Shown here: positions 4,645-60,100 of the stretch, in pieces
Layout of the letters: every line of letters starts with the position of its first letter
How positions within the stretch are numbered: position 1 is the first letter of the stretch
Virus record (IMG/VR): IMGVR_UViG_3300005326_000046
Location: 16,004 to 80,003 of that record
DNA from: a virus
Taxonomy: Duplodnaviria; Caudoviricetes
DNA length: 64,000 nt
Strand: one strand, 5' to 3'
The notes under the pieces: model-generated
The model's database searches: none
What the model saw: only the letters and a program-made list of their open reading frames with translations
Told to the model about the DNA's origin: nothing
Translations under genes and position numbers: made by a program

Positions 4645-4925
4645 TGTGGTGGCGTGAACACGGCCGCAACGATTACATGGGTTCCTGCTATGGCACACAA
4701 GGGGGAGTGATGAACTGCTCACGACGCAAAGGCACGGGCGAGGTTGATAACCTCCAATTTGGATGGAGAGCGCTGGGGGATGCTTGTAAGGAAGCCAGGA
4801 TGAATCCATTTATGGGCATATACGAGGTGAGTCTTTTTACGGGTATTTCCATCCCGGAACTGTATCGCATGGAATGCGGGTTGGACGATCCCGCCCCGCT
4901 AGCAAAGTTCTGGGGGATCCAATGA
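4641..4925 (+). CDS. Hypothetical protein, possible HTH in C-terminal half (start uncertain)
   Basis: MGIYEVSLFTGISIPELYRMECG resembles an XRE-type HTH. Confidence 0.5.
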   Translation: MMWWREHGRNDYMGSCYGTQGGVMNCSRRKGTGEVDNLQFGWRALGDACKEARMNPFMGIYEVSLFTGISIPELYRMECGLDDPAPLAKFWGIQ

Positions 4926-5356
4926 GCATCACCTTCGCCGAGTGGAACGCGTTTATCGACACCACCAACAAGATATCCCACTCCACGTCGCACAACATCA
5001 TCTGGCACGGCGTAAGCGCGTTCACCGATCGCGAGAAGCAAACGGTGTCGTTTGGCTACGGACACGGGCAGGAGTGGATCATCTTTCAGCAACGCCACAA
5101 TTGCGTCCTGCGCCTCGCCAAGTCAACCAACCAAGATGAGGACTTCTGTCTTGGCGACATTAGCACGCATCGCGGCGTTGAAGCCACTGTGCCGACGTAC
5201 TTCGTCAAGGAACTGCTGAACGCCGCTATCGCGTTCGTCGGCGTGCCTGAGGACTGGGAGCGCCGCGGGTTGATCCGCGCGAGTTGGTACGCGCCCATAC
5301 CTGTCATGGCAGAGGCCGCGAAGGACGATGACGACGGCGGGGACATCCCGTTTTAG
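4922..5356 (+). CDS. Hypothetical protein with acidic DDDDGGDIPF tail
   Basis: ATG 4922. The tail resembles SSB-type DIPF interaction tails, but no OB fold is recognised. Confidence 0.65.
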   Translation: MSITFAEWNAFIDTTNKISHSTSHNIIWHGVSAFTDREKQTVSFGYGHGQEWIIFQQRHNCVLRLAKSTNQDEDFCLGDISTHRGVEATVPTYFVKELLNAAIAFVGVPEDWERRGLIRASWYAPIPVMAEAAKDDDDGGDIPF

Positions 5357-17357: not shown

Positions 17358-17931
17358 CGCGGTCCTTCACGTGTTCCTTGACCAGGCCGGCAATGGCGGC
17401 TATCAGCACCATGGCCTTTTCCGCCGATATCATCTGCTGCATTTCGACAAGCCGCTTGCGCTCTGACTCCACCAACTGTTTACGCATAATAAGCGTGGAC
17501 CGTATGTCTATCCAGGCGGCATTGTCTTCGAAGCCATTCTTGATCAACGCGCCGATGGCGTTCAGCGCCTTGGCCTGCGCGGCGTGGTCACCGTCCTGTC
17601 TCGCCGCAACCATCTCGTACCACGTGACCTGTAGGCTTTTCCAGATGGCGCCGGATTCGCCGGTGTCCACCCGTAGCAACAAGTCGGCAAGCCGGGCATC
17701 CACAACGGCAATCTGGTCGCGCAGCTCCAGCAAGTTGTTATCGGCCAGCGCATCGTTGTAGCGCTCCATCAGCCGAGCCGGTAGGTACTTCGAGTACTTG
17801 CCGGTTTTGAACGACGGGGACGCCACACCAGACAGTGACTTTCCGCCGTGCACGTAACACACATTCTTGCCAACCATCGCGTGACGGGTACATTGTTTCC
17901 CCGTGCTCTTGGCTTTTGCGGTGCACTGCAT
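17299..17931 (-). CDS. Probable terminase small subunit (HGGxSTG-like zinc knuckle)
   Basis: CTAKAK...C...CYVHGGKS...FKTGKYS; immediately upstream of terL. Confidence 0.75.
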   Translation of the reverse strand: MQCTAKAKSTGKQCTRHAMVGKNVCYVHGGKSLSGVASPSFKTGKYSKYLPARLMERYNDALADNNLLELRDQIAVVDARLADLLLRVDTGESGAIWKSLQVTWYEMVAARQDGDHAAQAKALNAIGALIKNGFEDNAAWIDIRSTLIMRKQLVESERKRLVEMQQMISAEKAMVLIAAIAGLVKEHVKDRDALIAISEGLTRLVAVDPR

Positions 17932-17992
17932 TATGAGGTCTCGACTCTACTATGGGGTGCATCCCCCCTATAAACCAACCCAAAATTCACTC

Positions 17993-18021
17993 TTGACATT
18001 CACCCTCACCTATGCTATTAT
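17993..18021 (+). promoter_or_regulatory. sigma70-like promoter, divergent from terS
   Basis: TTGACA-N17-TATTAT with TG extension. Confidence 0.75.
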
Positions 18022-18053
18022 GTTTCTAGCAATTACATTCTCGGAGGTGAAAC

Positions 18054-18266
18054 TTGGATGATGCACTCACGAACACGATAGGCACAGAAGAAGCCGCGGC
18101 TTTCCTTGGCCTGTCGCAAGCTGGCGTGCGGTACCACCTGTACCGCGTCAAGGACCTGCGCCCCGACTTCAGGGACGGGAACAAGATTCTCTTCCTGAAG
18201 GATACGCTTGTCGAGTTCAACAAACGCAAGCGCAAACCAGGGCGTCCGGGCCTAGAACCAGACTGA
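18054..18266 (+). CDS. Excisionase/MerR-like HTH (HTH_17-type) DNA-binding protein
   Basis: IGTEEAAAFLGLSQAGVRY; SD GGAGGTG, TTG start; basic tail RKRKPGRP. Confidence 0.8.
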   Translation: MDDALTNTIGTEEAAAFLGLSQAGVRYHLYRVKDLRPDFRDGNKILFLKDTLVEFNKRKRKPGRPGLEPD

Positions 18267-18284
18267 CCGCTTGACATAAGGGAA

Positions 18285-18560
18285 TCAGTGCTTAGTTGCA
18301 CTGGAACCCCATAGCGTCTTGCGGATGACGTCTGGAATGCTAACGGGTTTGCGGATTACTCGCATGCTCCGGCTTGCGTTTGCCTCAATGGCGGCCTTTT
18401 CCTCGTGGTATACCTGTAGGCCGCGACCCAGCACCATGAGCACCAGGACAACGATGGGTAACCATGGGGCAGCCGGGAAGAGTTGGGGCAGTTGGTCCAC
18501 CAGCAGCGCGATAACCGCAATCCAGACGGCGTTAGGGATTTCGGGTAGTTTGATGCGCAT
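18285..18560 (-). CDS. Two-TM membrane protein, possibly holin-like
   Basis: SD GGAGG on the minus strand; two hydrophobic helices and a basic C-terminus. Confidence 0.6.
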   Translation of the reverse strand: MRIKLPEIPNAVWIAVIALLVDQLPQLFPAAPWLPIVVLVLMVLGRGLQVYHEEKAAIEANASRSMRVIRKPVSIPDVIRKTLWGSSATKH

Positions 18561-18651
18561 GTGTCAAGTACCTCCATGCGCAGTATAGCACATGGTGTTG
18601 AAAAACACACTATGTCAATTTCACGTCAGGTAGATTCACAAGGAGAGAGAG

Positions 18652-19347
18652 ATGGCAGTAAAGACACATGGTTATCGGCTGCACGTGGAGTTCATTACTC
18701 CCGTGCTTGGGACTCAGTCAACGCGTGAAGTAGCGACCGAGTTTATCGCCAAGAAGTCCGGCTTCGAGATCCCCCAGGATGAACAGGAAACACTCCCCGA
18801 AGCGCTGGAACGCGGAACCACCGTCTTTCACCGCAAAGACGACAAGCCGGTCTACTACGATTATCACATCCTCGGATTCCTGCGTGAAGCCGGATCTGTC
18901 CTCAATGGCAAGGTGACCGGTGGCGTCAAGAATCTCCGCAGTAAGGTTGAGAATAACGTCTTTGCGTTCCCCCGGCAGATTGAGCTACACGTGCCCGATG
19001 GAGCGGACTACGAGCCTTACAACGAGCGTGCGCTTCGAGCCAAGACGGCGCGGGGACCGCGCGTTACCCTCGTGCGATCCGAGCAGTTGCCAGAAGGCAC
19101 GTGGTTTGACGCCATGCTGGAAGTGATCGACGGCGAGATCACAGAGAACGTCCTGCGCGACTTGTTCGACTTCGGTTATTTGCGCGGCTTCGGTCAGTGG
19201 CGCACGGGTTGCTGGGGCCGGTTCGTGTACACGTTGACCAGCGACGAAGAGAAGCCAAAGGCCAAGGCAAAGAAGGTCGCGACGGATGATTCCGTCACGA
19301 CTATCTCGGGGATCCCCGTCATGCTGATGGAGGCACAACATGGATGA
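18652..19347 (+). CDS. Stand-alone Cas7-group RAMP-like protein (Vipr-like candidate RNA-guided effector)
   Basis: RAMP-type first strand YRLHVEFITPVLGT, internal ILGFLREA and RALRA motifs, C-terminal glycine-rich loop GYLRGFGQWRTGCWGRF; SD AAGGAG. No other cas genes in the window. Motif recognition only, no HMM run. Confidence 0.8.
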   Translation: MAVKTHGYRLHVEFITPVLGTQSTREVATEFIAKKSGFEIPQDEQETLPEALERGTTVFHRKDDKPVYYDYHILGFLREAGSVLNGKVTGGVKNLRSKVENNVFAFPRQIELHVPDGADYEPYNERALRAKTARGPRVTLVRSEQLPEGTWFDAMLEVIDGEITENVLRDLFDFGYLRGFGQWRTGCWGRFVYTLTSDEEKPKAKAKKVATDDSVTTISGIPVMLMEAQHG

Positions 19348-19597
19348 TGGTTCAGAATATGAATACGTTGATACGGTTCGAGTGCACTTTTATGTGATTG
19401 ATGACGAAGCGCGAGCATTGCGTAAGCTTGCCTATCTTGAATTGCGCACACCGCGCGACCAGGTGCGTTTCATGTTACGCCAGGAGCTTACGCGGCGCGG
19501 TTTGTTGCCGGTTGCGAAGGCCGCCGCGGATGACTCGACTACGACCAGCGCGGGCGTGCCCGTCATGGTGATGGAGATGAGCGATGCCGAAGTATGA
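19340..19597 (+). CDS. Ribbon-helix-helix-like small DNA-binding protein
   Basis: Strand VRVHFYV followed by helices EARALRKLAYLELRTPRDQVRFMLRQELTRRGLL; overlaps the RAMP gene stop. Confidence 0.6.
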   Translation: MDDGSEYEYVDTVRVHFYVIDDEARALRKLAYLELRTPRDQVRFMLRQELTRRGLLPVAKAAADDSTTTSAGVPVMVMEMSDAEV

Positions 19598-20279
19598 CAT
19601 TGGCAGCAAGGTGGCTTACAGGCACGAAGATGGCCGGCGCGTCGTCGGGCACGTGGTTGACTACTCGCCACATAGCGATCACTACACGATTCGCTTGCCA
19701 GAAGAACTGGTAACCGTCGACTCCGAGAACATCACTGCTGTGCCGAAGTACAACGTCGGCGACAAACTCAAGTACCGCAGTTCCGTAGGGTTCATAATTC
19801 CATGCACCGTGATTGCTGTCCACGAGCATGGTAAATTCGGACGCAAGTATGAGGTTCGGTTGGAAGGAAACCGGTGGCAGAATATCCCCATGCATCTTTG
19901 CGAAGAAGACATCGTAGACACACCAAGTGAAAACCCAGTGCCGCCTGTGGGCTCACGCGTCTTCTATCATGACTTCTCACATGCCGAGAGCGCGTGGAGC
20001 GGCAGGCTTGGTACTGTTGTTGGTCTTGCGGTGGGTGGTGTTCATGTGCAATTTGACGGCGAGAAAGACACGTGGAACTTGGAAACGGCCAAGGTGCACC
20101 TGGTTGACGACGCTTATGGATTGTTTGCGAACAACGACGCCCTCAAGTTAGCCAACAAGGAGATCGTTGTCCTCCGCGACGCGCTAAACTCCGCGAACAC
20201 TGAAGCAAACACGCTGCGCCGTTGTGTCGACAGAATTCATAGGCTTACCCATGAAGCACTGGGCCTAGATGATGACTAG
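19584..20279 (+). CDS. Three SH3/KOW-like repeats plus C-terminal coiled coil
   Basis: YDIGSKVAY, YNVGDKLKY, PPVGSRVFY; the stop codon abuts the pentamer array. Confidence 0.8.
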   Translation: MPKYDIGSKVAYRHEDGRRVVGHVVDYSPHSDHYTIRLPEELVTVDSENITAVPKYNVGDKLKYRSSVGFIIPCTVIAVHEHGKFGRKYEVRLEGNRWQNIPMHLCEEDIVDTPSENPVPPVGSRVFYHDFSHAESAWSGRLGTVVGLAVGGVHVQFDGEKDTWNLETAKVHLVDDAYGLFANNDALKLANKEIVVLRDALNSANTEANTLRRCVDRIHRLTHEALGLDDD

Positions 20280-21256
20280 GCATTGGCAGAGATCCGTCTT
20301 GCGACGCGCTGGCATAGCATGGCACGGTAACGCAACGGCGCCGCGTGGCGTCGCTCGGCAGTGGTAAAGTCAGGCGTAGCACAGTATCAGCATAGTACGG
20401 TCATGTGGAGCGGCGGCAAAGCGAAGTAAAGTCCCGCGGCGGCATGGTCTAGTCCAGTCGAGTCCCGCGCGGCAATGGCTTAGCGCAGCAGGGCGTTGGC
20501 ACAGCGACGTGTCGCAGCGCGATGGCGTGGCCTAGTGCAGTCGTGCAGTGGCACAGCTTGGCGAAGTCTCGTTTGGCACAGCAATGGCGAGGTATTGCGC
20601 GATTCGGCAAAGGCGAAGCGGTGTCCTGCACGGCAACAGTCTAGCGTGGAACAGTCAGGTATTGCCGGGTGTTGCGAGGCGTTGGCGAGGCGAGGCTTTG
20701 TGAGGCGTTGGTCCTGCATAGTTGGGTGATGCATTGGCAGGGTTCGGTCAGGCACTGCGCTGCGCTGGTAGTGCTCGGCAGTGTTAGGCATTGGCAAAGC
20801 GTTGTAGGCCGCTGTCCTGTCTCGTTCTGCATGGCGATGGTCAGGTGAGGCGCTCTAACGTGCCGCGGGGGCACGGCGCTGTTTTGCGGCCCTATGTTCT
20901 GCAATGGCGAAGTTCAGCCTTGTGCCGCGAAGGCATAGCCTGGCACAGTTCAGCATGGTAACGGTCTTGTTTGGCACACTGATGTCTAGCAACGGCCAAG
21001 CACAGCAAGGTCCGGCAATGGCATAGCCCAGTATGGCAGTGCGACGGCAAAGTTCTGCTTGCGCCGCAATGGCGAGGCATTGCCAAGCACAGTTTTGTCC
21101 GGCAATGGCAAAGCGTGGTTACGTTTGGTAATGGCATGGTGCAGCAAAGTAACGCATCGGTAAGGCCAAGTGACGTTTGGCGATGGTGTGGCATAGCTGC
21201 CTGCGGCAAAGTAACAGTGAGGTAAAGCTGAGTCATGCAGTGCAACGGTAAGTCCT
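20279..21256 (+). ncRNA. N-G-Y-N-N pentamer array, candidate guide-RNA (vrRNA-like) locus
   Basis: About 180 pentamers by hand parse (e.g. ggcga ggcga ggctt tgtga ggcgt t ggtcc tgcat agttg ggtga tgcat t). One extra nt recurs mostly every 26 nt. Only a handful of pentamers break the GY rule. No credible ORF. Confidence 0.85.
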
Positions 21257-21289
21257 CAAAACGATTGGCAAGGCCCGAAGGGGGAAACA

Positions 21290-21844
21290 ATGGCAAAACG
21301 GTGGTTCCACTGGAAGAAGTTAGGGCGATACGTCGAGATCGACACAACCCGCACGTGCAAGAACTGCGGCGCGGTGCATCCATACCTCGGAGGCGAATCG
21401 TACACGCTTCGTCAGTCTCTGGGCGCAAAGATCATCTGCCCAGTCTGCGACCACGAGTACGAGATGCGCACAAGCCAAGAGATTGTTCTGGGCCTTATCG
21501 AGCACATCGGGCACGTTGAGGCGGAGCGCGACTACTGGAAGAACTTGTGGTACAACGGCGGATACAAGAACCGGCCAGCACCGCGAGATAGGCCATGGGA
21601 CATCAAGGCCGTTGACGGCTCGCCAACCATCGTCTCAGGGCCGGCACTGTGTCCAAAGTGCGGCAAGCAGCAGGTTGAACTACACGCCGGTGTGCTGTAT
21701 CCTGGCAATGACCTTCCGCACATGGAGATTCGTTGTCCAGACTGCGGCCCGCTTCAGGCCAACCCCTACGAGCCGTCCGAGGATCCAATCAACAAGGATG
21801 CTCCACCGGTGAAGCCGTGGGCACCGCCGCAGGAGCAACTATGA
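21290..21844 (+). CDS. Multi-CxxC zinc-finger protein
   Basis: CKNC, CPVC, CPKC and CPDC pairs; SD AAGGGGG. Confidence 0.75.
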   Translation: MAKRWFHWKKLGRYVEIDTTRTCKNCGAVHPYLGGESYTLRQSLGAKIICPVCDHEYEMRTSQEIVLGLIEHIGHVEAERDYWKNLWYNGGYKNRPAPRDRPWDIKAVDGSPTIVSGPALCPKCGKQQVELHAGVLYPGNDLPHMEIRCPDCGPLQANPYEPSEDPINKDAPPVKPWAPPQEQL

Positions 21845-22080
21845 GGTACTGTTCGGCCTGTCGAATTCGAGAGGGAACGATTCACGCATTCCTGATCATG
21901 GACATCGTCGCGCCCACTTCAACGAAGCATAAGGACGTGAGCTTCTGGCTATGTCCACAATGCGAGAAGCTCACACAGAAGACGTTCACGCGCAACGCCG
22001 ACCAGAAGGAACGCGTTGCGCGCTTGCTTGCCGCAGAAGAACCGCGGTTCGCGAAAGGCAACAATGGTCAAGCAACTTGA
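21841..22080 (+). CDS. Small zinc-binding protein (ClpX/UVR-like CxxC...LCxxC)
   Basis: MRYCSAC...WLCPQC; ATGA overlap at 21841. Confidence 0.65.
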   Translation: MRYCSACRIREGTIHAFLIMDIVAPTSTKHKDVSFWLCPQCEKLTQKTFTRNADQKERVARLLAAEEPRFAKGNNGQAT

Positions 22081-22427: not shown

Positions 22428-22622
22428 ATGGAAAAAGAACAGTTGACCGTATCGGAGGCGGCACGATTGCTGGGAGTCAGTCCGGCAACGGTACGCAGGA
22501 TGTTGGACAGTGGAGTCATCCAAGGATGGCGCATTCCTCTTGGAACGCGTCATCGGCGAATTCCGCGCGCCGAGATAGAGCGCGTCATGCAAGGCACGGG
22601 GCCAGAGGGGGATACGTCATGA
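22428..22622 (+). CDS. Excisionase-family HTH (HTH_17) protein
   Basis: LTVSEAARLLGVSPATVRRMLDSGVIQGWRIP...RRIPRAEIER. Confidence 0.9.
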   Translation: MEKEQLTVSEAARLLGVSPATVRRMLDSGVIQGWRIPLGTRHRRIPRAEIERVMQGTGPEGDTS

Positions 22623-25305: not shown

Positions 25306-25560
25306 ATGCGCATCAGTCTAAGGTGGTGGAATGCACGTAAGGACACAGAAGAGCGGGTCGCGGCACTGCAAGAGCAAAATAGGATTCTACAGGAACGGAT
25401 TGATCGCCTTTTTGATCAGGAGCAAAAGTATCGCAGGCTGGCGCGTGCACTTGCTAGCATCATGATGCATGGTGAGATACGCGAAGAAGATGGACTTGTC
25501 AACGAGACCGTTGAGGTCCTTACTGGAGCGTCGCGTGGCACAACAACAAAAGCCGACTGA
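25306..25560 (+). CDS. Small coiled-coil protein
   Basis: ATG 25306 after GGGGGAATAGG. Confidence 0.55.
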   Translation: MRISLRWWNARKDTEERVAALQEQNRILQERIDRLFDQEQKYRRLARALASIMMHGEIREEDGLVNETVEVLTGASRGTTTKAD

Positions 25561-27319
25561 ACGCCCTATCCCAGCCAACCCGGAGGCGGAGGAAGCCGTA
25601 CTTGGTTCCGCCTTGCTTGACCCAGACGCGATCGTCATCTTGTCTGGCATCCTCAAGCGCGGCGACTTCTACCGTGAGAAAAACGGGTGGATCTATCAGG
25701 CAATGCTTGACCTCCACAACGAGGGCAAGCCGATTGACTTCGTTACCCTGGTTGACGTCCTGGAGCGCAACGACCAGCTTACACAGATAGGCGGCGCGAG
25801 TTATCTCACGGGCCTGTTGAACAAGGTTCCGTCTGCCATGAATGCCGAGCATTACGCGGGCATCGTCGCACGTGCCGCCACCTTGCGCAGACTCATCGGT
25901 GTTGCAGGCATAATTGCTAATCTTGCCTACGACGAAACGACACCAGCGACAGAGATTGTCGATAAGGCGGAAACGCTAATCCTCGGCATGTCTGAGCGTA
26001 CGAGCCGCAACGAGCCCACACCCATCGGTGCGGGGCTGCGGGCCGTGGTGGATCGTCTGGACTACATCCAGCGCCACGAAGGCGAGCTGTTGGGTGTGCC
26101 CACGGGATTCGCTCGCCTTGACGGCCTGGTGGGTGGCTTCCAGAAGTCTGACCTGATCGTCCTTGCGGCGCGGCCAGGCGAGGGTAAAAGCTCATTCGCC
26201 ATGAACATCAGCCTGAACGCGGCCAAGGACTACGGGCAGCGCGTCGGCGTGTTTAGCCTGGAGATGAGCAAGATCGAGCTGGCGCAGCGGATGCTCGCCA
26301 CAGAGAGCGGAATTGACCAGAAGATGCTGCGGCGGGGCGGACTGAGCCCAGACGAATGGGCGCTACTGATGGAGACGGCTGGACGCATGGCCGAACTACC
26401 GATTTACATTGACGATTCAGCCAGCCTATCAGCGACTGAGCTACGCAGCAAGGCGCGCAAGCTCCAGGCGGAGCACGGTCTTGACTTCGTGGTTGTTGAC
26501 TACTTGCAATTGATGACGGGGGACGCGCGGGCGACGAATCGGGTGCAAGAGATCGCGACGATCACGCGCGGACTCAAGGCGCTGGCGCGCGAGCTGGATG
26601 TGCCTGTGCTGGCACTGTCGCAGTTGTCGCGGGCGATTGAGACCCGTAGCGAGAAGACGCCAATGCTATCAGACCTACGGGAAAGCGGATGTTTGGCCGG
26701 CAGCAGCATGATCGAGATAGCTGGTACGGCGTGGCCGGAACGAATTGACTCTCTTGTTGGGCGAGACAACCTGTATGTCGGGGCCATGAACCTTGCCAGT
26801 AGGAAGGTTGAGGCAAGTAAAGCCGGTAGCATATTTTACTCTGGCGTAAAGCCGCTTTATCTACTACGGCTTTCCAGCGACCTTATGATACGGGCAACAG
26901 CCAACCACAAGTTTTTCGTCAAGGGAGCGGGATGGAAACGACTTGACGCTTTGACTTGCGATGATGAGTTGGCCGTCAGAAACGAGCGCTTGGCGATTTG
27001 TGACGTGTCGTGGGCGCGGTTTGTTTCGCGCGAGTATGCAGGAACCGGAAAGACGTATGACATAACCGTGCCATGTTACAGCAACTTTGTTGCCAATGGG
27101 ATCATCTGTCACAACAGTATCGAACAAGATAGTGATATTGTCATGTTTATTAAGAAGCAAGACGCGGACGCCGCATCAGGCGGCTTGGCGAACGAGGATC
27201 TAGTGCGTATCGTCATCGGCAAGCACCGCAATGGGCCTACGGGCTCGTTTCCCCTCTTCTTCGACCGCAAGCGCACGCGGTTCCTGGAGCTTGAGACGGT
27301 GGAGAAGCCGCCGTATTGA
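25469..27319 (+). CDS. dnaB: Replicative DNA helicase DnaB containing a mini-intein
   Basis: EAEEAVLGS, TGFARLD, LAARPGEGKS, FSLEMS, VDYLQL, LSQLSR, SDLRESG/SIEQD, KHRNGPTG. Confidence 0.97.
   Translation: MVRYAKKMDLSTRPLRSLLERRVAQQQKPTERPIPANPEAEEAVLGSALLDPDAIVILSGILKRGDFYREKNGWIYQAMLDLHNEGKPIDFVTLVDVLERNDQLTQIGGASYLTGLLNKVPSAMNAEHYAGIVARAATLRRLIGVAGIIANLAYDETTPATEIVDKAETLILGMSERTSRNEPTPIGAGLRAVVDRLDYIQRHEGELLGVPTGFARLDGLVGGFQKSDLIVLAARPGEGKSSFAMNISLNAAKDYGQRVGVFSLEMSKIELAQRMLATESGIDQKMLRRGGLSPDEWALLMETAGRMAELPIYIDDSASLSATELRSKARKLQAEHGLDFVVVDYLQLMTGDARATNRVQEIATITRGLKALARELDVPVLALSQLSRAIETRSEKTPMLSDLRESGCLAGSSMIEIAGTAWPERIDSLVGRDNLYVGAMNLASRKVEASKAGSIFYSGVKPLYLLRLSSDLMIRATANHKFFVKGAGWKRLDALTCDDELAVRNERLAICDVSWARFVSREYAGTGKTYDITVPCYSNFVANGIICHNSIEQDSDIVMFIKKQDADAASGGLANEDLVRIVIGKHRNGPTGSFPLFFDRKRTRFLELETVEKPPY
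26690..27115 (+). mobile_element. Mini-intein (142 aa, no homing endonuclease) at the RESG/SIEQD site
   Basis: Begins CLAG, block B TANHKF, block F/G TYDITVP..NFVANGIICHN, followed by Ser. Confidence 0.95.
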
Positions 27320-49655: not shown

Positions 49656-52600
49656 CTACGATTGCTTGACTAGGCCAAGGTTCTGGAGCGCCGTGATGAC
49701 GTCATCCACGACGGCCCCGGCCCCGGTTGCCAGGACGGCGCGAACGATTGGCGCGACGCCATAAAATCCAAGTGCGGACTCAGTGCCCGCGCCGCGTATG
49801 CGAATACCTTCGCGTGCCGCCGTATCGTATGCGCTCAGCACAAGATCGGCCTTGCGGGTCGCGTGCGTTGCCTCATACCACAACGTCGAAATGAGTGCGG
49901 CGGACTGAGCCGCGGTAGTTGATGATTCCAGGTTGAACGCTAGTCCCAAACCAAACCCAGCCGCCGCCGTGCCGCTGGTGTCGTGACCAAGCGTAGCAAC
50001 GTTCACGATGGCATCTGTGCCAGCGTCGGTGAGAAGTGTGTGGAAACGTGTAGCCGGTCCCGTCGTCCCGATACCGACGTTGCCCCCATCTAAGATAGTA
50101 AACACCTCAGTTGCGCCGTCAAAGATATTAACCAAATCACCCGTACCATCACCCTGTACTCGCAGGACGGTATTGGTCTCCGAGGTAGCACTGTCTTGGA
50201 CAATATCCATGACGGCTGTGGTAGCAGTTCCGGCAGTATTGTTGCGGTAGAAATATCCTGCTCGGTAGTTCGTGCTGGTGCCAAAGACGCCAATATTGTT
50301 CGTGCTGATGCCATAGACGCCAACAGAGTTCGTGCTGGTGCCAAAGACGCCAATATTGTTCGTGCTGTTGCCATAGACACCATAAGAGTTCGTGCTGATG
50401 CCATAGACGCCAATATTGTTCGTGCTGTTGCCATAGACACCATAAGAGTTCGTGCTGATGCCATAGACGCCAATAGAGTTCGTGCTGTTGCCAAAGACGC
50501 CAACAGAGTTCGTGCTGGTGCCAAAGACGCCATAATAGGTTCTGCCCCTTATCTTGTACCTTAATCTCGCATCAGTATTAGTCCAGGTTGAACCATCAGT
50601 AGAAGTGGCTCCCAGATTAGTAGAGACATCAGAGTCAAGGACAATATTGCCACCAGTGGGAGCGGCAGAATACTTTAGTACCAACCAATAACTTGCCCCC
50701 GAAGTTAAGGTATATTGGGTTCCTACTGATAGCTCCTGATATGAAGTAGTAATAGTGCCCAAACGGACACTATTGCCCGTAGCTAAAGCTGCGCCAGTGG
50801 GTTTTGAAGGCGAACCGCCATCATCGGCATAGAGATAGCCGACAACATAAGCAGTGGTATTGGTAATATCGGCCGACTCTTTAATTCTAACTAAGTAGTC
50901 ACCCATAGTGTGGTTGCCGTCAGCCGTAAACTTAACTGCCACATACTGGGTAGCCATGGTAGAGTCAGTACCCGTGTAGGCAGAACCATCCTGTAGGGTA
51001 GAAGCGATTTGGGTAGCCGAGATGGACGGATAGGTAGACTGGTTGACAGTTTGGTTGGTAATGATATTACCGACTACATCTAATTTATAGCCGGTGGTGG
51101 GAGAGATGGTGCCGATGCCGACTCTCGCATTTGTCGTATCGACATTGAGAATGGACGTTCCAGCCGCGTTCTGCATTTGCAGCGCCGTCGTACTGTTAGC
51201 CACTGGCTTCCATGACGGTCCGATGATGCCATTGGTGAACGTCTGCGCCTGCGCGGACGCGCCAGTCTGTGCACCGGTGGTCAGTAGGAAGCCAGTAGAG
51301 GCAACACTGTTGAGGTACTGCGCGTTGAGATTGTTTACTATCGTCGTACTGGCAATCGTCAAAGGCGCCGTGCCCGTGGCGACGTCGCTCTCGAATGTCT
51401 GGGCGCGAATTTCATAGCTGCCAGCATCCCAGTCGGCAATCAGCGGTCGCGTACCCGTATCAAGCAACGCCACCTCATTGATGATCCCGCTTCCCGAAGT
51501 GGTGTACATGGCTTCGTCATCACTGTCATTCTCGAAGCTGATGGCGAGTTTGATCTGTCCGCTTGCATTATCGTTGTCTGCCCCAACCGGCGCGGCGTCG
51601 TTGAACACGCTCCACGACGATGCCAACACAATGATATCTGCCCCAGCCGTGGCGGAGGCGTTCCACGCCAGCGTGTTGCCGCCAACATGCGGACACGAAC
51701 TCTTCAGGTGGCATTCCTGTATCTCTACGTCTCCGCCCGTGCCCTCATGCTTGACAATGTAAGTCTTAGCTGATCCGCCCGCATTCGGATTGCGCGCGTA
51801 GATAAAGCAGTTGTAAAAACGCGCATCTGTGCTTCCGGTAAAGCGAATGGCGTGTACTGCGGCATCCACACTTGTATTGATGACGATGTAGCAGTTGGTA
51901 AAATAGCTTGTATCCACTGCCGAATTGGCAATGACTGAAGTTGTAGCAGGATCAGGGGCATAAATCGTCAGATCATCAACGTGTGAACCGCCGCCACAGG
52001 TAAGCACGCCGCTGAGTGTGGTCGCTTTCCAGCCATGCCCACGCAATGACACGTAGTCAGGCAATGTGACATTTTCCACGTAGATACCTGTCCATACCTC
52101 AATGACATATGGGTTGTCAGCAGCCGCATCTCCAGCTGTGTTGATGGCGGTCACCGCCGCGCCAATGGTTGAGTAGTTACCGTTGCCATCAGCATCGACA
52201 ACCATGATGTTGGTGGTCCAATGCTGATAGCGCGCATCGCCCGTCTGGCGATTCAACGCATCTGTGTCCGCGGTCGCGTCACCAACTTCCACGAGTCGCA
52301 ATGAGTTGAAATCAACGGTTCCACTACCGACAACAAATTGAAGTGCTCCGCTTGAGTCGATCAGTATGTCGCCGCCGAGTGTGTTGATACTGAGTCCAGA
52401 AAGTGCAACCAGATCAAGGTTGCCAGCAGATGCATATACCGTCACATTGAAAAGGATATCGGGGGGCGATGGCTGGACGGCCTTTATTGAAAACTTAGTG
52501 TCGCCGCCCGCGTTGACCCATTTCAGCGCGTTGGGATCACCAGTTCCGCTTGTTATCTTTATACCGTCTGCGTCTAGTGCGACATCACCGCCGCCAGCTT

Positions 52601-54191
52601 TGATTGATCCATCCGAGTCAAAGTACGCCTGTAATGTGCCAGCATTCAGCCCAAGCAACATGCCTGCCCCTGATGTCGGATCCCACCCAAACACGACACC
52701 AGTCGCGGTTCCATAGTCTGACATACTAGTGAACGTTGTCGATCTGTCAATCGACGCGATCCACTCGTTTACATAAAGGTTCTGGACTTCACCATTGAAA
52801 GCAGGCGTTGTTGGTTGGCTGTAGGCGCCACCCGTTCCAGCGGCTCCGCCCCCGACATAGTTGCTCAGCTTAGCCGTGTGCCCGCCAAAACTCACGCGGC
52901 ATGATACTGACTCAGGACCGGTAAGCGTCGTAACAACCTGCCTTACTGCATAGTAGCCCGTGAATCCCAGCGTTGAGAACTCCACTTGCAAACGCTGCCC
53001 GGCACGAATGCCCCAGCGCGCGACCTCCAGCGTACCAGTTGCAACGCCATAGGCGTATTCTGTCAGGAGTGCGTTGGCTATCTCAGTGGCCGCGTCCTCG
53101 GTTGTAATGGTAGAGTCAGGGACTTCGTAGTCGAACCACAATCCGTATTGTGCCTGGCTTGCGGCGTCTTCGGCTTGCGCCGTTACGTTTTCGTTGTAGA
53201 CATAAGTAATGGATATGTTATCCACGCCGATGCCTGGCGGAGAAACGTCAGGCCAGCGCACGGTCCCGGCAGAGTAGTTGACCAGCGCGTCATACCCACC
53301 GCCGAACGTGTCGTACCAGTCCACGCCGTAACTTTGCAGTACCCCGCCAACGGTGATACGCACCATGGTACGCACGGGCTTGTACGTCAGCGCGAACGTG
53401 GTCGTGGCCCCGTCTCCCGAAAACGTTTCCGTCACGGGATCGGACGCCTTGACGCCACCACGCACGGTGATTCTGTTGCGAATGTCTGTCGCGTCAACGC
53501 TGTTGTCCGGGTCCTTCAAGGGCGGGAATGAGGTAGACCAATTGGCACTGGCAATCCTGGCAATGGAGAATGGCGCGGTGTCAGATGACGCGGGGCCGAA
53601 CCACAGATTGGCGCTTGCATCAATGCGCCAGGTCCACGTCGCCGCCGCAAGATTAGTTACCACGGTAGCTAGTGCATCCAGCAACTTGCCGAGCTTTTGA
53701 CCGTCTGTGACAAACAGATCCAGCGTTTGACCCGAAGTGACATGCGTCGTAACGTCGAACGCCGTCTGGGCCGGTGGCGTGCCGGTTGGGTCTAGCGCCT
53801 GATTGAACAGATCGACAATGATGTCTGCAACGTCTTGGTTTACGTAAGTCTTGCGAACAATCGTTGTTCGCGCCAACTTGGTTGTGTAGCTCTCGCAGGT
53901 CACAGTCCAAATGCGATACGCGCCGTTGGCCCCGAGCCGCGGCTTGGGCGTAACAACATAGCCACCAAACGCCACATCAGATCCGTCGAGCGTCCAGATG
54001 ACCTCTTGCCATTCCGTGACTTCCAGCGCGTCAGTGACATCGGTCAACTCGAAAACCAGGGTGTCAATCTGGCTGCCTTCGTTGTCCGTGAAGATAAGAC
54101 TACCGGTGTTCACCTTCGACCAGACTTCGGTCCCGCCGATGGTCAGTGAGAAGGTGTGGTCTATGTCAATGGCTGGCACATTAGCCCCCAA
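49656..54191 (-). CDS. Large tail tip / baseplate hub fused to fibre or receptor-binding domains
   Basis: Follows the tape measure. Hub-like N-terminus, pectin-lyase-like segment (VDADGNGNYSTIGAAV), NVGIGT fibre motifs, 10-aa GVYG repeats. Confidence 0.85.
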   Translation of the reverse strand: MGANVPAIDIDHTFSLTIGGTEVWSKVNTGSLIFTDNEGSQIDTLVFELTDVTDALEVTEWQEVIWTLDGSDVAFGGYVVTPKPRLGANGAYRIWTVTCESYTTKLARTTIVRKTYVNQDVADIIVDLFNQALDPTGTPPAQTAFDVTTHVTSGQTLDLFVTDGQKLGKLLDALATVVTNLAAATWTWRIDASANLWFGPASSDTAPFSIARIASANWSTSFPPLKDPDNSVDATDIRNRITVRGGVKASDPVTETFSGDGATTTFALTYKPVRTMVRITVGGVLQSYGVDWYDTFGGGYDALVNYSAGTVRWPDVSPPGIGVDNISITYVYNENVTAQAEDAASQAQYGLWFDYEVPDSTITTEDAATEIANALLTEYAYGVATGTLEVARWGIRAGQRLQVEFSTLGFTGYYAVRQVVTTLTGPESVSCRVSFGGHTAKLSNYVGGGAAGTGGAYSQPTTPAFNGEVQNLYVNEWIASIDRSTTFTSMSDYGTATGVVFGWDPTSGAGMLLGLNAGTLQAYFDSDGSIKAGGGDVALDADGIKITSGTGDPNALKWVNAGGDTKFSIKAVQPSPPDILFNVTVYASAGNLDLVALSGLSINTLGGDILIDSSGALQFVVGSGTVDFNSLRLVEVGDATADTDALNRQTGDARYQHWTTNIMVVDADGNGNYSTIGAAVTAINTAGDAAADNPYVIEVWTGIYVENVTLPDYVSLRGHGWKATTLSGVLTCGGGSHVDDLTIYAPDPATTSVIANSAVDTSYFTNCYIVINTSVDAAVHAIRFTGSTDARFYNCFIYARNPNAGGSAKTYIVKHEGTGGDVEIQECHLKSSCPHVGGNTLAWNASATAGADIIVLASSWSVFNDAAPVGADNDNASGQIKLAISFENDSDDEAMYTTSGSGIINEVALLDTGTRPLIADWDAGSYEIRAQTFESDVATGTAPLTIASTTIVNNLNAQYLNSVASTGFLLTTGAQTGASAQAQTFTNGIIGPSWKPVANSTTALQMQNAAGTSILNVDTTNARVGIGTISPTTGYKLDVVGNIITNQTVNQSTYPSISATQIASTLQDGSAYTGTDSTMATQYVAVKFTADGNHTMGDYLVRIKESADITNTTAYVVGYLYADDGGSPSKPTGAALATGNSVRLGTITTSYQELSVGTQYTLTSGASYWLVLKYSAAPTGGNIVLDSDVSTNLGATSTDGSTWTNTDARLRYKIRGRTYYGVFGTSTNSVGVFGNSTNSIGVYGISTNSYGVYGNSTNNIGVYGISTNSYGVYGNSTNNIGVFGTSTNSVGVYGISTNNIGVFGTSTNYRAGYFYRNNTAGTATTAVMDIVQDSATSETNTVLRVQGDGTGDLVNIFDGATEVFTILDGGNVGIGTTGPATRFHTLLTDAGTDAIVNVATLGHDTSGTAAAGFGLGLAFNLESSTTAAQSAALISTLWYEATHATRKADLVLSAYDTAAREGIRIRGAGTESALGFYGVAPIVRAVLATGAGAVVDDVITALQNLGLVKQS
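50268..50533 (-). repeat. Nine tandem 30-bp units encoding GV(F/Y)G(T/N/I)STN(S/N)x
   Basis: GTTCGTGCTG recurs at 50268 and every 30 nt to 50508; 50351-50410 and 50411-50470 are near-identical 60-mers. Confidence 0.95.
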
Positions 54192-57100
54192 GCTGGATCT
54201 GGTAGATGATGGCGCGCTTCAGGTCGTTGAATTGCTGAGCATCCAGCGGCACGCCGCCGCCCGCTTCGCCCTCAAAGCGCACGATGACCTCGCGTCGCGA
54301 ATCAACCTCGAACCTTCCGCTGGAGAATTGGCCGCCCGCAACCGCGGCCAAATCGGCCAATTGCGCCGTGGCCCGCGCGACGTCCGGGATGCCCGCCTCG
54401 ATTCCCTGCGCCATGCCGAGCGGGATGTTCAGCGCCAAGTCTGCCATGAGCCGACTAGGCGACGCGATACCAAGTTCATCACGTACGGCCGCTTCGATGT
54501 AGGCGGTCAGAGAATGAATGGCAGTATTGAGCGCCCCGAGATAGGCCAACCCCAACCCGCCATTGGGATCAACGCCCCAGGATATCCCGCGCACGAGATC
54601 CTGTCCAATCGCTACGCCGAAACCGTAGGTCGTTTGCCGCGTCTGCGAACTGTAGCCGAATGCGGTTGTCAGCAGGGCAAGCAACGTATCTGTGGTCATG
54701 TATACATAATGTGGCATCATGCTGGCAGTGACGGCGGCCCAGTACAGGCCATCCGTGATGCCCGTGCCAATGCCAGCGCCCCAGGTTGCCGTCGTGTCAT
54801 GATCTGGCAATCCATCCTCAATGCCGATGATTGCCCCGATAATGGCCCCCCCCGCGCCCTCGACATCGGTACCTGCGCCAAACAATCCCGCCGTGAACGT
54901 CGCGAAGAGTTGCAGAGTGTAGTCGATCAGGTCTTGCAACTGTGCCATGGATGGTAGACCGTGTTCGTCTAGCGCCACGAACAGATCAAGCGCGCGTTGT
55001 AGCACGTCCAGCACGGACATAACTGCGGCGCTGAAGTCCGTCGCGATGGGAATCCAGGTGGCATCACGTTCCGCGACCACGTACTCATCAAACGCCGTTA
55101 GCGTTCCGCTCATGCGTTCGATCACATCTGCCATGCGCCGCTTGAATACTTCCAGGTCACTAGATGTTCCGTCAGTCAGTTGACCGAACACTGATAGCGC
55201 TTGTCCGATCGCTCCCACAACAACACCCACGGCGGTTGCGAACGCGGACGTCGCTTCAAGTCCGTCCTGTACGCCGGGTCCAAGCGCGTATTCCTCCACT
55301 AGACCATAGGTGTAGGTCACTGACCCCAAGAACGATTCGATTCTACTGTTCAGCAGGCCGATGTAGCCCTGTAGGCCCTTGAACAGATCAAGCCCAGCCG
55401 TCAGGCCGCCGAACACGGCAGACATGGCGTTGCCAAATGCCGTAACGGGACCAAAGGCGGTTTGTGCCTCTTCGACAGTCATTGGGTAGGTGGCAACCAC
55501 CCACTGATTCAGGCGGTAGAACACGCCTTCGGTGAACGTCTCGAACCGTGCCCACGTGTCACCATCTGGTTCGGTGAACGAAAAGTCAGCAGCCATTGAG
55601 AGTGCCGCTTGTAGGCCGCCGAACACAGAACTGAGAGCATTGCCCCAGGCGCTCACGGGACCAAATGTCTCTGCGTCCTCCGCGCTAGATGGGTAATAGC
55701 TAAAGATTAGAGCATAGAGCGTGCTAAACACCTCAAACGTCCAGGTGATAAATGAATACCAGACCCCTTCATCGACATCCCACGTATCCGGTAGCACACC
55801 TGCCAGCGCGACTGCTGCCTGCAAACCACCGAATATGGAACCAAGTGCCCCACCCCACGCACTCACCAGCGCCAGCCCTTCCGTCGTGTATACGGGCGTT
55901 GTGCTGTACTGCGTCATGTGCCCGGTTTGCAGCCAGGCATAGGCCATGTCAAAGACGTCTGTCACCCAGCCGAAGAAGTCTACCCACACGGTATCATCCA
56001 CCGACCAACTTGCGGGAAGATTTCCGGCCAGCGTCAACGCGCTGTTTAGGCCGTTGAAGATCGACCCAACGGCAGACCCCCAAGCCGTGACAAGCGCCAA
56101 CCCCTCATCGGTGTAGACGCCCGTCTGGCTAAATGGCGTGGTGTGAACTACGCCAAGCCACTGGTATACCAGGTCAAAGACCTCCATGACCCACACGTAG
56201 AAGTTATTCCAGACGCTCCAATTTGGTGTCTGCCAATCTTCGGCCAGGGTGAAGTTGGCCGCGGCTTGCAGTCCCGCCACCAGCGAGGACAACGCGCTGC
56301 CGAACGAACTTACCAGCTCGATACCTTCGCCGCCCAGCATGGTATCCGACAGTGGCGTGCCGTCATCCACCGGCATGCCCGCGTTCAGCCAGTCGTAGAA
56401 TGTCGCAAACGTCTCCTCAACCCAATCTACGAACGGATCCCACACCGCGGAACTTGGAGCGGCCCATTCTGCTGGCATGGTTGCAATCAAGCTCACGCCT
56501 GCGGAAAGCCCGCCCATCAGCGCGCTTACGGCAGTACCAAACGCCGACACCAGGTCGCTTGTGCCCGTGTCCCACATCTGGATGCCTTCCGCAAGCCTGT
56601 CCATGATGCGCTTGAGCACCTGAACCAGCGTGTCTATCTTGTCCTCGGACACATTCAGGCCAGTGGCTGTATCAATGTCTGCCAACAACGCGATGCCGGT
56701 TTGCAACCCACCCGCGATACTGCCGAGCGCCGTCGCGAACTTGACCATGTCCTCATCGTAGAAGAGCATGGTATCGCGCCGTAGACGGCTCATCTTGTCC
56801 ATGATGGCCGTCCAGGTCACGCGAAACGAATCAAACTTGTCAACCAGGTCGTCGGCCTGTTCCCATGCGGCAAGATCTGTCAGGAAGCTAAGCCCCAAAG
56901 TAAAGGCCCCGGCAACCGCGGATAGCACGTTGGCGAACTCGGTCACTTCGGCGGGCAGCTCCTTGAATTGCTTCCACTGCATGACTTCTTCCAGGCGTAC
57001 CAGCATCAGGCCCAGCGTCGAGCCCAGTGACGCGATGAAGTCCTGTAGTGCGCTGGTGCGACCCATGCCGTGCAACGAACCACCGCGCACGAATTCGTCT

Positions 57101-60100
57101 AGTTGGTCCCAGAAGGCCAGCACGTTTGAGAATGGTTCCAGGATCGCACCCAACAGATCCGCGAACTCAGTCACGGTAACGGGGAGTTCCTTGAACTGTT
57201 TCCATTGCATCAGCTCTTCAATGCGAACCAGCATGAGTCCGAGCGTCGATCCCAACGCGGCGATAAAGTCGTCTATCAGTCCCGCACGCCCAATGCCATG
57301 CAACGAGCCGCCCTGAATGAAGGAATCGAGTTGGTCCCAGAAGGCCAAGGCTTCTTGGAATGGACCAACCACGCCGCCCAGCAAGTCGGCAAACTCTTGC
57401 ACGTTTACCGGCAGTTCATCGAACTGTGTCCACATGGTCAGGCGCCAGATGCTTGTCAGCATGAGCCCCATGGTTGACCCGAGCGATGCGATCATCTTGT
57501 TCAGCGCATCTGTTTTACCGACGCCGTGTAGAGACCCGCCCTGAATGAAGGAGTCAAGCGCGTCCCAGAAGTCAAGCATGTCAGAGAATGGACCAAGCAC
57601 AGCGCTGAGCGTGTCGGCGAACTCCAGCGTGATCGCGGGCAACTCTTCGAACTGCGGCCACTGCATCACGATCAGCAAGCTGTCAAGCATGAGGCCCAGC
57701 GTGGACCCAAGCGCAGCGACGAATTCGGCAAGGATTGGTGTCCTGCCGACGCCATGTAGGGATCCCGCGCGAATGAATTCGTCTAGCGCGGACCAGAAGT
57801 CCACCATGTCACTGAACGGTTCCACAACAGAACCGACAATCTCCACGAAGTCCACGAAGTCAGGCGGGAGCTGCTGGATTTCATCGGTGTAGATGACGCG
57901 GTGTAGTTCCTCCGCCATGACGAACAGCAGATCAGCCAGACCCGCGATGATGGTGCGAAGATCCTCGCGATACTTTTCATCGAACACCAGCGCGGGCCGA
58001 TAGCTGACGATTGACTGCAAGTCGCCCGCGAACTGCATTGCGGCAGCCATCGGGTTCAGCGCCGACACCAGCGCCGAGTTGAAGATTTCGAACGCGGGAC
58101 CGATCTTGGCAATGTCTCCCGTCTTGATGCGCGTAAGTTGCGATGCGACCAACTGCAGGAAGTCCGCCATGCTTGGAATCAGCGCGCCCACAGCCTCCAG
58201 GTTGATTTCCGCCTTCGATAGATCGACGGACAACTCCGTCATGCCGGACACGGCCTCGATCATGCTCTTAATCGTCGACATGGCCTTGCTTATGTTGTCA
58301 GCGGCATCCCCAGTCAACCCGCTGGAGCCGGTAAATGCCTTAAACTGCGACGCCAACTGGCGCATGATGTCCATGACGGGCGCAAACAGTTCCGCGAAGT
58401 TGTCGGCAATGGGCGTTTCGGCTAGACGCACGGCAAGATCAATGGCCGCGACCGCCGCGTCTATGATGGCCTTAGCCGCGTCAGCGGATGCCTTCGCGGC
58501 TTCGGGTTCCATGTTTTCAATGCCGATGATCATACCAGCGATCGTATCTTCGCCTAGCCACATGAAGCGCACGGATGGTGAATGTGAGAGGAGCCAATCT
58601 CTCGCCGCGTTGTAAGCATCAACAACGGCCTGTACTACGGCATTTATAAGGGATTGTACTGATCCTACTACGCCGTCGACCATACCCTTAATGAGGTCTC
58701 TGCCAAAGTCAACGATCATTTCCCAATTGTCAGTTATCCATGTCCCAATCGACTCGATTGTGCCCGTGATGTTATTTTTTACCTCAAGCACATCGGCGGC
58801 CACGTTTGTGATTATTTCATCCCATACTTCGCTTAGGTTTGTTATTATGTTATCCCATGCGGTACTCGCGTCTTCCTTGACATTCTCCCATGTGTCTCCG
58901 ATCACAGTTTTTACGTCTTCCCACTTGACCTTCTCGCCTCCAGTCAGGTCAGCCCAAATGCCTGAGATGGTATCGAAAATCGCCCCCCAAATCTCATCTA
59001 CAATGCCCAGAATCGCGCCAAAGATTTCCCCCATATCCTTGCGCATCTTTTCAGCAGACTTCGTTCCTGATTCAACTGCCCCCTTCCAGTCCCCATTGAA
59101 CACCTTGACGACGATGTCAACCGCCCCAGTAATGGTATCAGTGATTAGGTTGAAGAACCCAGATATGCCATCCGCCAAGTGACCGACCAGACCAAGAGCA
59201 TGATCAATGACTGAGCCCAGCACCTCACCGAGGGCCAACGCGATAGCGGCTGCCAGCCCTGCCAAGAGAACAAGCAGAGGCTGAAGCGATTTTCCCAACT
59301 CCACGAGCTTTGGTTTCAGCTTGTTCCAATCGTCGCCAAGTCCGCTAACGGCGTCGCCCACATGCTCGAACATTCCCGCAAACATGTCTAGCACTGGCTG
59401 CAAAGTGCGCATTCCGTTCTGAACATCAAGCACAAATGACCCAAAGCCCGTTAGCTGCGTGGATGTCCCAGTATCCTGGTACATCAGTGAGTCCCACAGC
59501 GGCTTGATGGCCGTCTTGATGCTTGCTGCCCATATCGGAGCATTGTTTTGAACGTAGAGGGCAACGTTTCCAACCCAAGCGCCTATCTTTTCGCCTGCCC
59601 CCGTGACCATTCCATCGCCGTTTGTGTCCCACCAGTCGACGAGTCCGCGCCACCACTTACCAATCTCTGTACTCAAAGTGGTTATCCACGTGGACACGTT
59701 TGTTCCTATGCCGGTCGCAATATTGCCAATCCATGTACCGATCTTGCCAATGCCATCAGTGACAAGTGCCCCGCCGCCACCTTCCCACCAATCAACCAAC
59801 CCGCGCCACCATTTGCCAATCTCGGTTCCCAGATTCGTTATCCATATTGACAGGTTGGTTCCTATACCGGTGACAACGCCACTGATCCACGTGCCGACTT
59901 TACCAATACCATCCGTGATGAGTTGTGCACCTCCAGTGTCCCACCACGTAACCAATCCGCGCCACCACTTGCTGATTTCGGTTCCGAGGTTGATTATCCA
60001 CGTGGCAACATTCTGCCCGATTCCGGTGATGACACCGCCAACCCAAGACGCGACCTTGCCAATGCCATCGGTAGTGAGTTGTGCGCCACCGCCATTCCAC

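Follow-up and report, generated by a model that had tools for sequence, protein, structure and literature searches.

A phage locus that very probably encodes a VIPR system: a minimal RAMP protein beside a 188-unit pentamer array

The window analysed here is a 64,000-nucleotide stretch of viral DNA (Caudoviricetes; positions 16,004 to 80,003 of IMG/VR record IMGVR_UViG_3300005326_000046), and all coordinates below refer to it. On its plus strand, at 18652-19347, lies a gene for a 231-residue RAMP protein, referred to here as vipr. This gene heads a short operon that runs into a 973-nucleotide (nt) tract of pentameric repeats (Table 1). The virus record to which the window belongs is a complete genome of 80,003 bp that carries terminal repeats; portal and large terminase genes are located just upstream of the vipr region on the opposite strand, and replication genes are found downstream. 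Our analysis indicates that the gene very probably encodes the Vipr protein of a phage Viral Interference Programmable Repeat (VIPR) system, with the repeat tract at 20279-21251 as its array. A preliminary description of this DNA had presented the gene as a stand-alone member of the Cas7 group. The first part of this view is contradicted by the operon, which leads straight from vipr into the array, and by the conservation of this pairing in related loci.

VIPR is an RNA-guided phage system described in 2026 preprints (bioRxiv 10.64898/2026.04.26.720920). According to these preprints, a RAMP of approximately 20 kDa (Vipr) polymerises on vrRNAs built of GGY/NN pentamers, the NN bases of which serve to read double-stranded DNA and skip one base in each unit, and the resulting complex silences competing phages and satellites. 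The preprints distinguish seven VIPR types, some with a YNNNG or other consensus and some with tail-less “staggered” arrays, and place Vipr proteins in a separate, early-branching RAMP clade proposed to be ancestral to CRISPR RAMPs. The experiments reported there come so far from a single type, represented by SUSP1 and P. fulva.

The vipr open reading frame (ORF) has exactly the limits given in the preliminary description and carries its own GGAG Shine-Dalgarno sequence 7-10 nt 5' of the ATG, as had been claimed. All of the sequence elements reported for the product were also found, namely the TPVLGT motif (residues 16-21), the loop rich in glycine (G-loop) GYLRGFGQWRTGCWGRF (residues 175-191), the EEKPKAKAKK linker (residues 199-208) and 23 further residues. 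The protein matches no family model in Pfam, PHROGs or NCBIfam. A word-indexed search identified 132 relatives, most of which span approximately 198 residues and end just past the last strand, and 1277 clusters (50% identity) matched the Vipr family at E ≤ 1e-3 in an exhaustive search. The vipr family is very large, and the gene is real, intact and under conservation. Comparison of 30 homologues identified L19, G20, Q22, R126, R129, G135, R142-S143-E144, G175, G179, W183 and G189 as invariant, with G181, Q182, R184, G186 and F191 of the G-loop conserved in at least 90%; conservation of this loop had been proposed as a check on the RAMP assignment. The family spans many phyla, and the closest cellular homologues of this Vipr are encoded by metagenome-assembled genomes (MAGs) of Chloroflexota (Anaerolineae, Dehalococcoidia) and Blastocatellia.

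The AlphaFold2 (AF2) model of Vipr, calculated with the family alignment (predicted local distance difference test, pLDDT, 84), is composed of one beta-alpha-beta (RRM) core, a thumb beta-hairpin at approximately residues 121-146, and the G-loop at 175-191 followed by a C-terminal strand, with no second RRM. In a Foldseek search of the PDB, type VII Cas7 and the type III-A protein Csm3 ranked first (E 1e-8 to 1e-6, probability 1.0), at template modelling (TM) scores of 0.45-0.55 and sequence identities of 10-14%. The best match in BFVD was A0A8S5R426 from Siphoviridae sp. ctcMb1 (E 3.4e-17, 31% identity, TM 0.61/0.72). At the sequence level, the family profile matched PDB entries for type VII Cas7 (E 5e-6), Csm4 (3.6e-4) and SUSP1 Vipr (36pp_D; 0.14 over 107 residues). 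Based on the model, the protein is predicted to be a single-RRM RAMP with thumb and G-loop. The RAMP hallmarks named in the preliminary description therefore prove to be real, the monomer model having its best structural matches among RAMPs and not in a non-RAMP fold. Its assignment to the Cas7 group stands as far as the Cas7-like RAMP fold is concerned; given the low identity to Cas7 and Csm3 and the full-length alignment to SUSP1 Vipr, the protein is better filed as Vipr.

When the family profile was run against the phiSUSP1 genome (90.7 kb), the sole match was the vipr ORF (E 8.5e-4). The matched ORF corresponds to ALH47069.1, annotated as a hypothetical protein, and its long flanking intergenic regions are full of GGTNN repeats. 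Profile alignment with hhalign, using a 40-member family profile, paired the family with ALH47069.1 at a probability of 87% and E 3.8e-6, colinear over 172 columns. In this alignment the G-loop GVGDWRP-RFGRF of SUSP1 is matched to GFGQWRTGCWGRF in the protein described here. The structural preprint describes SUSP1 residues W178 and R179 as contacting repeat bases G2 and Y3, and H17 and D177 as contacting G1 (10.64898/2026.04.26.720927). W183 and R184 align with the former, so that the G2/Y3-contacting pair is kept, whereas both G1-contacting residues are replaced, by T21 and Q182, respectively. Glutamine occupies the position of Q182 in all 54 related loci with a parseable loop. Retention of the W-R pair together with replacement of the G1 contacts accords with an array that fixes G2 and Y3 but leaves position 1 free. 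The thumb arginine R138 falls within two residues of the invariant R142 in the SUSP1 comparison, in a region where the alignment is gapped. Taken at the level of sequence, homology to SUSP1 Vipr appears modest but consistent.

The array begins at the stop codon of the 231-residue gene that precedes it, 0.9 kb downstream of vipr, and with 188 units of the form N-G-Y-N-N is among the longest in this analysis; a VIPR array is taken to need at least 4 units. Two-state segmentation gave it a score of 465, compared with 52 for the next tract, which is the array's own reverse strand, and 37 for the best tract elsewhere in the 64 kb. Of the 151 pentamers, 145 (96%) have G at position 2 and 149 (99%) have a pyrimidine (C or T) at position 3; position 1 is G in 44% of units and A in 30%. 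In addition, 34 units, one per 5-6 units, are 6 nt long, and each of these advances the phase by one base. These units divide the tract into approximately 35 blocks, each opening with a strict GGY unit and closing in a 6-nt unit, and 19 of the 34 blocks between 6-nt units measure exactly 26 nt, the commonest length. Model-free autocorrelation of G[CT] confirmed this spacing: lags of 5, 25, 26 and 31 gave values of 0.52, -0.13, 0.59 and 0.49, respectively. Because the phase of the array drifts, it did not stand out in single-base Fourier power at period 5, whereas phase-aware segmentation and autocorrelation detected it.

The same organisation was observed in 86 arrays of the clade (L005-L084), where 26- and 31-nt blocks dominate (25% and 26%), the 6-nt unit has the consensus N-G-Y-R-R-N, and G occupies position 1 in 83% of block-initial units versus 30% of inner units. 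This 26/31-nt super-period may correspond to the “staggered array” of the preprint or be tied to the six-subunit turn of the filament. Positions 1, 4 and 5 show an almost even base composition, and the arrays of relatives cannot be aligned while their G-Y is kept. ORFs listed within the tract are by-products of the repeat, and an independent gene caller leaves the tract empty. A GC-rich hairpin with a T-run behind it is located where the array is most degenerate (degenerate units at 20864-20900); judged by its sequence, it is a candidate internal terminator or processing site that may split the array in two.

No repeated element of tail size was found in 20279-21300, indicating that a conserved 3' tail is absent, and an Rfam search of 17900-21600 at E ≤ 1 gave no match, hence no hammerhead ribozymes or known tails. 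This absence argues against type II and not against VIPR, since tail-less staggered arrays are described in the preprint.

For the analysis of related loci, 80 of 220 viral contigs encoding a Vipr relative were taken, and an array was called beside the gene at a same-strand score of at least 60 (95th percentile of the background, 33). A same-strand array adjoins the vipr homologue in 69 of these 80 loci, located downstream in 59 (median gap 18 nt) and upstream in 9. Several of the 11 weak loci end just past the vipr homologue. An array was also found on the same strand beside the homologue in 20 of 26 loci from species-representative genomes (MAGs). One further copy of the locus, L112, comes from another sample (SRR5248219) and is identical to the one described here, so that it carries no information about variation. 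Because this pairing is kept in both sets of loci, the gene is best understood as part of a VIPR system and not as a lone RAMP.

Conservation of the pairing also bears on two other explanations. The preliminary description had raised as an alternative an anti-CRISPR decoy subunit that acts on a host Cascade. In this reading the protein would imitate Cas7, become built into a host type I/III effector complex or cap it, and so poison it. The Cas7-like fold, the phage origin of the gene and the lack of cas partners would suit such a role; as the preliminary description had stated, Cascade partners are missing, and we detected no cas domain in the neighbouring genes within approximately 4 kb on either side of vipr. 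A decoy nevertheless leaves unexplained both the array, which stands beside the gene in 89 of the 106 related loci, and the conserved W-R of the RNA-contacting G-loop. An identity of 10-14% to any Cas7 is also too low by far for imitation of one particular host subunit interface, and a family distributed over many phyla is unlike a match to one host system. We found no support for this alternative and consider it very unlikely. The ranking of type VII Cas7 and Csm3 as the best matches among solved structures could, in turn, mean that the locus is what remains of a CRISPR-Cas system, or a miniature one (type III/IV/VII-like), with its other subunits and array elsewhere or lost. Against this, no CRISPR-like repeat-spacer array was found in the 64-kb window by Tandem Repeats Finder and no cas domains were detected in the neighbours, the units recur every 5 nt in place of 28-37-nt repeats with spacers, and the gene is intact and conserved in more than 1000 clusters. 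A remnant is, in our view, barely credible.

By analogy with the SUSP1 experiments reported in the preprints, the VIPR system at this locus would operate as follows. The operon of vipr, the ribbon-helix-helix (RHH) gene and the SH3-like gene would be transcribed on into the adjoining 973-nt array, and Vipr would bind the array RNA at one protomer per pentamer. The fixed G-Y would be gripped by the thumb and by Q182-W183-R184 of the G-loop, with the variable bases left exposed. The resulting helical ribonucleoprotein filament could then use these bases to recognise double-stranded DNA of a competitor, be it a phage, a satellite or a prophage, and silence transcription of the recognised DNA. The binding of one protomer per repeat, the targeting of DNA and the silencing are all carried over from SUSP1.

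Natural targets were sought under seven pairing rules: NN with 0-3 skipped bases and NNN with 0-2, with the 6-nt unit counted as contributing 0 or 1 target base. Guides consisted of single blocks and of sliding windows of 8, 10 and 12 units, and arrays were masked in the database. Several results weigh against the assignment to VIPR. The phage's own genome and 84 related loci yielded no natural target, the best matches equalling those of shuffled controls, and exact scans of IMG/VR with two 9-unit NN+1 and two 8-unit contiguous-triplet patterns returned 0 matches. In sequence, the protein is linked only modestly to the one Vipr that has been characterised by experiment (20% identity, hhalign 87%, E 0.14 with a plain hidden Markov model). 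Furthermore, the array is unlike the characterised type II arrays, having no 3' tail or pseudoknot, a position 1 that is not G, and the 26/31-nt super-period. Because of these differences, the published rules for processing and for the 1-nt skip may not transfer to this clade.

Among candidates from the search, 51 “perfect” colinear matches were rejected as unmasked duplicate loci. Two NN+1 matches of 19/20 (from the L032 array to the vipr gene of L025, and from L071 to L054) were rejected as chance because neither extends past the sampled window. The first of these pairs L032:5929-5980 with L025:2995-3025 over ten consecutive units, with an extra skipped base at the 6-nt units. It falls in the 5' part of vipr and brings to mind the vrRNAs directed at vipr that SUSP1-family phages are reported to carry.

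These results could also be accommodated if the protein belongs to the Vipr family and the array serves as a scaffold or sponge RNA for protein polymerisation and not as DNA-targeting guides. A filament of this kind might control the early operon of the phage itself, tie up the Vipr protein, or have RNA and not DNA as its substrate. In keeping with this, the array lacks conserved 3' tails and, apart from the 6-nt steps, its unit boundaries are not evident, single blocks hold only approximately 10-15 variable bases, no target was found under any of the seven skip rules, and neither of the residues that contact G1 in SUSP1 Vipr is kept. However, near-uniform positions 1, 4 and 5, in arrays that cannot be aligned and yet keep G-Y, bear the mark of stored variable information and not of a fixed scaffold. 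Tail-less “staggered” arrays and YNNNG repeats occur in bona fide VIPR types according to the preprint, and the failed target search covered only small local data and exact matches. We therefore regard a pure scaffold as improbable and favour a guide-bearing VIPR array.

Table 1. Coordinates of genes and sequence features in the vipr region, with the evidence for each.
Feature	Position	Strand	Basis
Small hydrophobic gene upstream of vipr	18285-18560	-	ORF
vipr, minimal RAMP protein (231 residues)	18652-19347	+	ORF, Shine-Dalgarno, AF2, Foldseek, hhalign against SUSP1 Vipr
Lys-rich linker and C-terminal tail of Vipr (residues 199-231)	19246-19344	+	AF2, alignment
Probable RHH DNA-binding protein (85 residues)	19340-19597	+	Atlas, AF2
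Second copy of the Vipr tail, C-terminus of the RHH protein	19508-19594	+	BLASTP, DNA repeat
231-residue protein, three possible SH3/Tudor/KOW-like repeats and a C-terminal helical region	19584-20279	+	Weak matches
vrRNA array, 188 units N-G-Y-N-N, 973 nt	20279-21251	+	Segmentation, autocorrelation
GC-rich hairpin then T-run, inside the array	20859-20885	+	Terminator-like scan
184-residue protein, several CxxC zinc-ribbon motifs	21290-21844	+	ORF; between array and small zinc-ribbon gene
Small CxxC...CxxC zinc-ribbon protein (79 residues)	21841-22080	+	Neighbour-ORF clustering, profile

The gene upstream of vipr lies on the minus strand and encodes a hydrophobic protein, in agreement with the preliminary description, which had vipr pointing away from a neighbouring membrane gene. 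Of the promoter-like sites that precede the vipr operon, the strongest is a near-consensus sigma-70-type sequence at 17993-18021 (+), with TTGACA and TATTAT separated by 17 nt and a TG element; it precedes a small HTH_17-like gene at 18054-18266. Two further HTH_17 genes are located at 22428 and 22954.

Downstream, the gene for the 85-residue protein overlaps the vipr stop by 8 nt and is itself overlapped by the 231-residue gene by 14 nt. Atlas feature matches of the 85-residue protein to RHH_5/RHH_9/Arc clusters reached 0.93, and Arc-like structures were among its Atlas rows. Its AF2 model is poor (pLDDT 56) and shows two helices (residues 22-34 and 38-52). The protein is probably an RHH protein and, as modelled, a candidate lineage-specific accessory factor. 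A database search with it returned no match except itself, and no homologue of either this protein or the 231-residue SH3-like protein was found in the 80 viral loci. In L085, which carries a Vipr fragment with 80% identity, the fragment is followed by an RHH homologue of 46% identity and then directly by the array; the 231-residue gene is interposed between RHH gene and array only in this phage. The latter protein gave a weak SH3_15 match (E 0.27) and Atlas rows for Agenet, KOW, SH3_15 and Tudor, all at TM <0.5, and we treat the SH3/Tudor/KOW-like assignment as a lead only.

Two zinc-ribbon genes follow the array. All Pfam matches of the 184-residue protein are below curated cut-offs (Lar_restr_allev at 4.4e-6, DZR and others), and it does not match the profile of the small zinc-ribbon family. 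The ATG of the small zinc-ribbon gene overlaps the upstream stop (ATGA), and the independent gene caller agrees on this gene. Its product belongs to no Pfam family. An eight-member profile identified 14 loci (L006-L009, L011-L015, L020, L086, L088-L090) at E ≤ 2e-16, four of them Chloroflexota MAG loci, and in the genome described here the small gene is its sole match (1.4e-29). The proteins span approximately 70-115 residues with a Q-x-x-R-V-A-R-x-L motif, and the gene is found past the array, between vipr homologue and array, or just upstream. On these profile matches, the small zinc-ribbon gene is the best candidate for a conserved accessory (vap) gene of the nearest subclade.

Further from the locus, a DnaB-type replicative helicase at 25469-27319 (+) is split by an intein (Intein_splicing, residues 425-549). 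Tandem repeats were found at 50267-50532 (30/60 nt, 8.9/4.4 copies), within a minus-strand ORF of 1511 residues (49656-54191), and at 59626-60156 (156 nt, 3.4 copies), within a minus-strand ORF of 2832 residues (54181-62679).

The extra C-terminal tail of Vipr lies outside the RAMP core, as the preliminary description had held: residues 200-224 have pLDDT values below 50 and are predicted to be disordered, and most homologues end at approximately 198 residues. Beyond the Lys-rich linker the tail reads D-D-S-V-T-T-I-S-G-I-P-V-M-L-M-E. It is absent from nearly all homologues, and among the relatives examined was found only here and in L085. A second copy forms the C-terminus of the RHH protein. 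The two tails share 16 of 26 residues (BLASTP E 5e-7), and the underlying DNA, 19272-19332 and 19516-19576, is 75% identical over 61 nt. Because the RHH homologue of L085 has no tail, the second copy appears to be a recent local duplication. A protein database search with Vipr residues 190-231, set for similar protein lengths, recovered only the protein itself, and a motif scan of the 80-kb genome found the two copies and none elsewhere. These comparisons suggest that the tail is restricted to this lineage of phages. We came across no mention, in the text of the three VIPR preprints, of a tail common to Vipr and an RHH protein. Elsewhere in the window, a 160-residue protein at 4874-5356 (+), which has no Pfam or PHROG match, ends in an acidic tip resembling that of single-stranded DNA-binding proteins (DDDDGGDIPF). 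The preceding P-I-P-V-M-A-E-A is loosely similar to the G-I-P-V-M-L-M-E of the Vipr and RHH tails; this may be coincidence.

The particularities of the array and of the tail together suggest a more specific reading of the VIPR system, which we consider possible but doubtful. The guide grammar of this clade would differ from GGY/NN with a 1-nt skip: G-Y would be fixed and three bases would vary, with an extra nucleotide every 5-6 units, close to one six-subunit turn of the SUSP1 filament, so that the array would be read as approximately 35 turn-sized modules or in some other register. The tail of Vipr and of the RHH protein would, under the same proposal, be a docking motif for a common partner, for example the adjacent SH3/Tudor-like protein or a host factor.

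The locus is very probably an example of VIPR from a distant clade; VIPR is already described in the 2026 preprints, and this locus does not add a further kind. What sets it apart locally is a first repeat position that is relaxed in step with residue changes in the protein, together with the 26/31-nt super-period, the duplication of the tail and the neighbouring zinc-ribbon gene. While it leaves the picture of what such genes are unchanged, it provides a clean and complete VIPR locus from a clade whose closest cellular homologues are in Chloroflexota MAGs. It can serve as a test case for whether the published targeting code generalises, for how tail-less arrays are cut into guides, and for what the accessory proteins and the C-terminal peptide of Vipr and the RHH protein contribute.

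Among known systems, type VII Cas7 (PDB 8yhd, 8z4j, 9j9e) and Csm3 (PDB 6ifl, 6ifn) have the RRM, thumb and G-loop arranged as in the Vipr described here. The likeness extends to the G-loop, which reads G-I-G-G-W-L-N-K-G-Y-G-R in type VII Cas7/Csm3 and G-F-G-Q-W-R-T-G-C-W-G-R here. In contrast to Cas7/Csm3 systems, this locus has no Cas5, Cas10, Cas11 or Cas14 partner and no CRISPR array, and its RNA period is 5 nt compared with 6 nt in class 1 effectors. The BFVD match A0A8S5R426 is phage-encoded and of similar size; its name, “Cas system-associated RAMP superfamily protein”, is an automatic one only.

SUSP1 VIPR (type II; PDB 36pp) shares with this locus a phage-encoded single-RRM RAMP of approximately 200 residues with a thumb and a W-R-containing G-loop, one or more small genes in the operon that are accessory in SUSP1 and candidate accessory genes here, a same-strand pentamer array with fixed G-Y, and the lack of cas genes. 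The two differ in array architecture: SUSP1 has vrRNAs of approximately 100 nt with 9-16 units each and a pseudoknot tail, whereas one continuous 973-nt tract of 188 units is found here. Position 1 of the repeat is G in SUSP1 and is not fixed as G here, and the 6-nt unit every 5-6 units shifts the phase here, whereas SUSP1 arrays keep to multiples of 5. The extra C-terminal tail is not present on SUSP1 Vipr, and the candidate accessory genes here appear unrelated to SUSP1 vap1. The array also resembles what the preprint reports for other VIPR types, which have YNNNG or NNNNG repeats. Read as G-Y-N-N-N, it equals the YNNNG consensus given in the preprint Methods, and its regular +1 phase shift without tails fits the figure legend describing a “staggered array” with 1-nt offsets.

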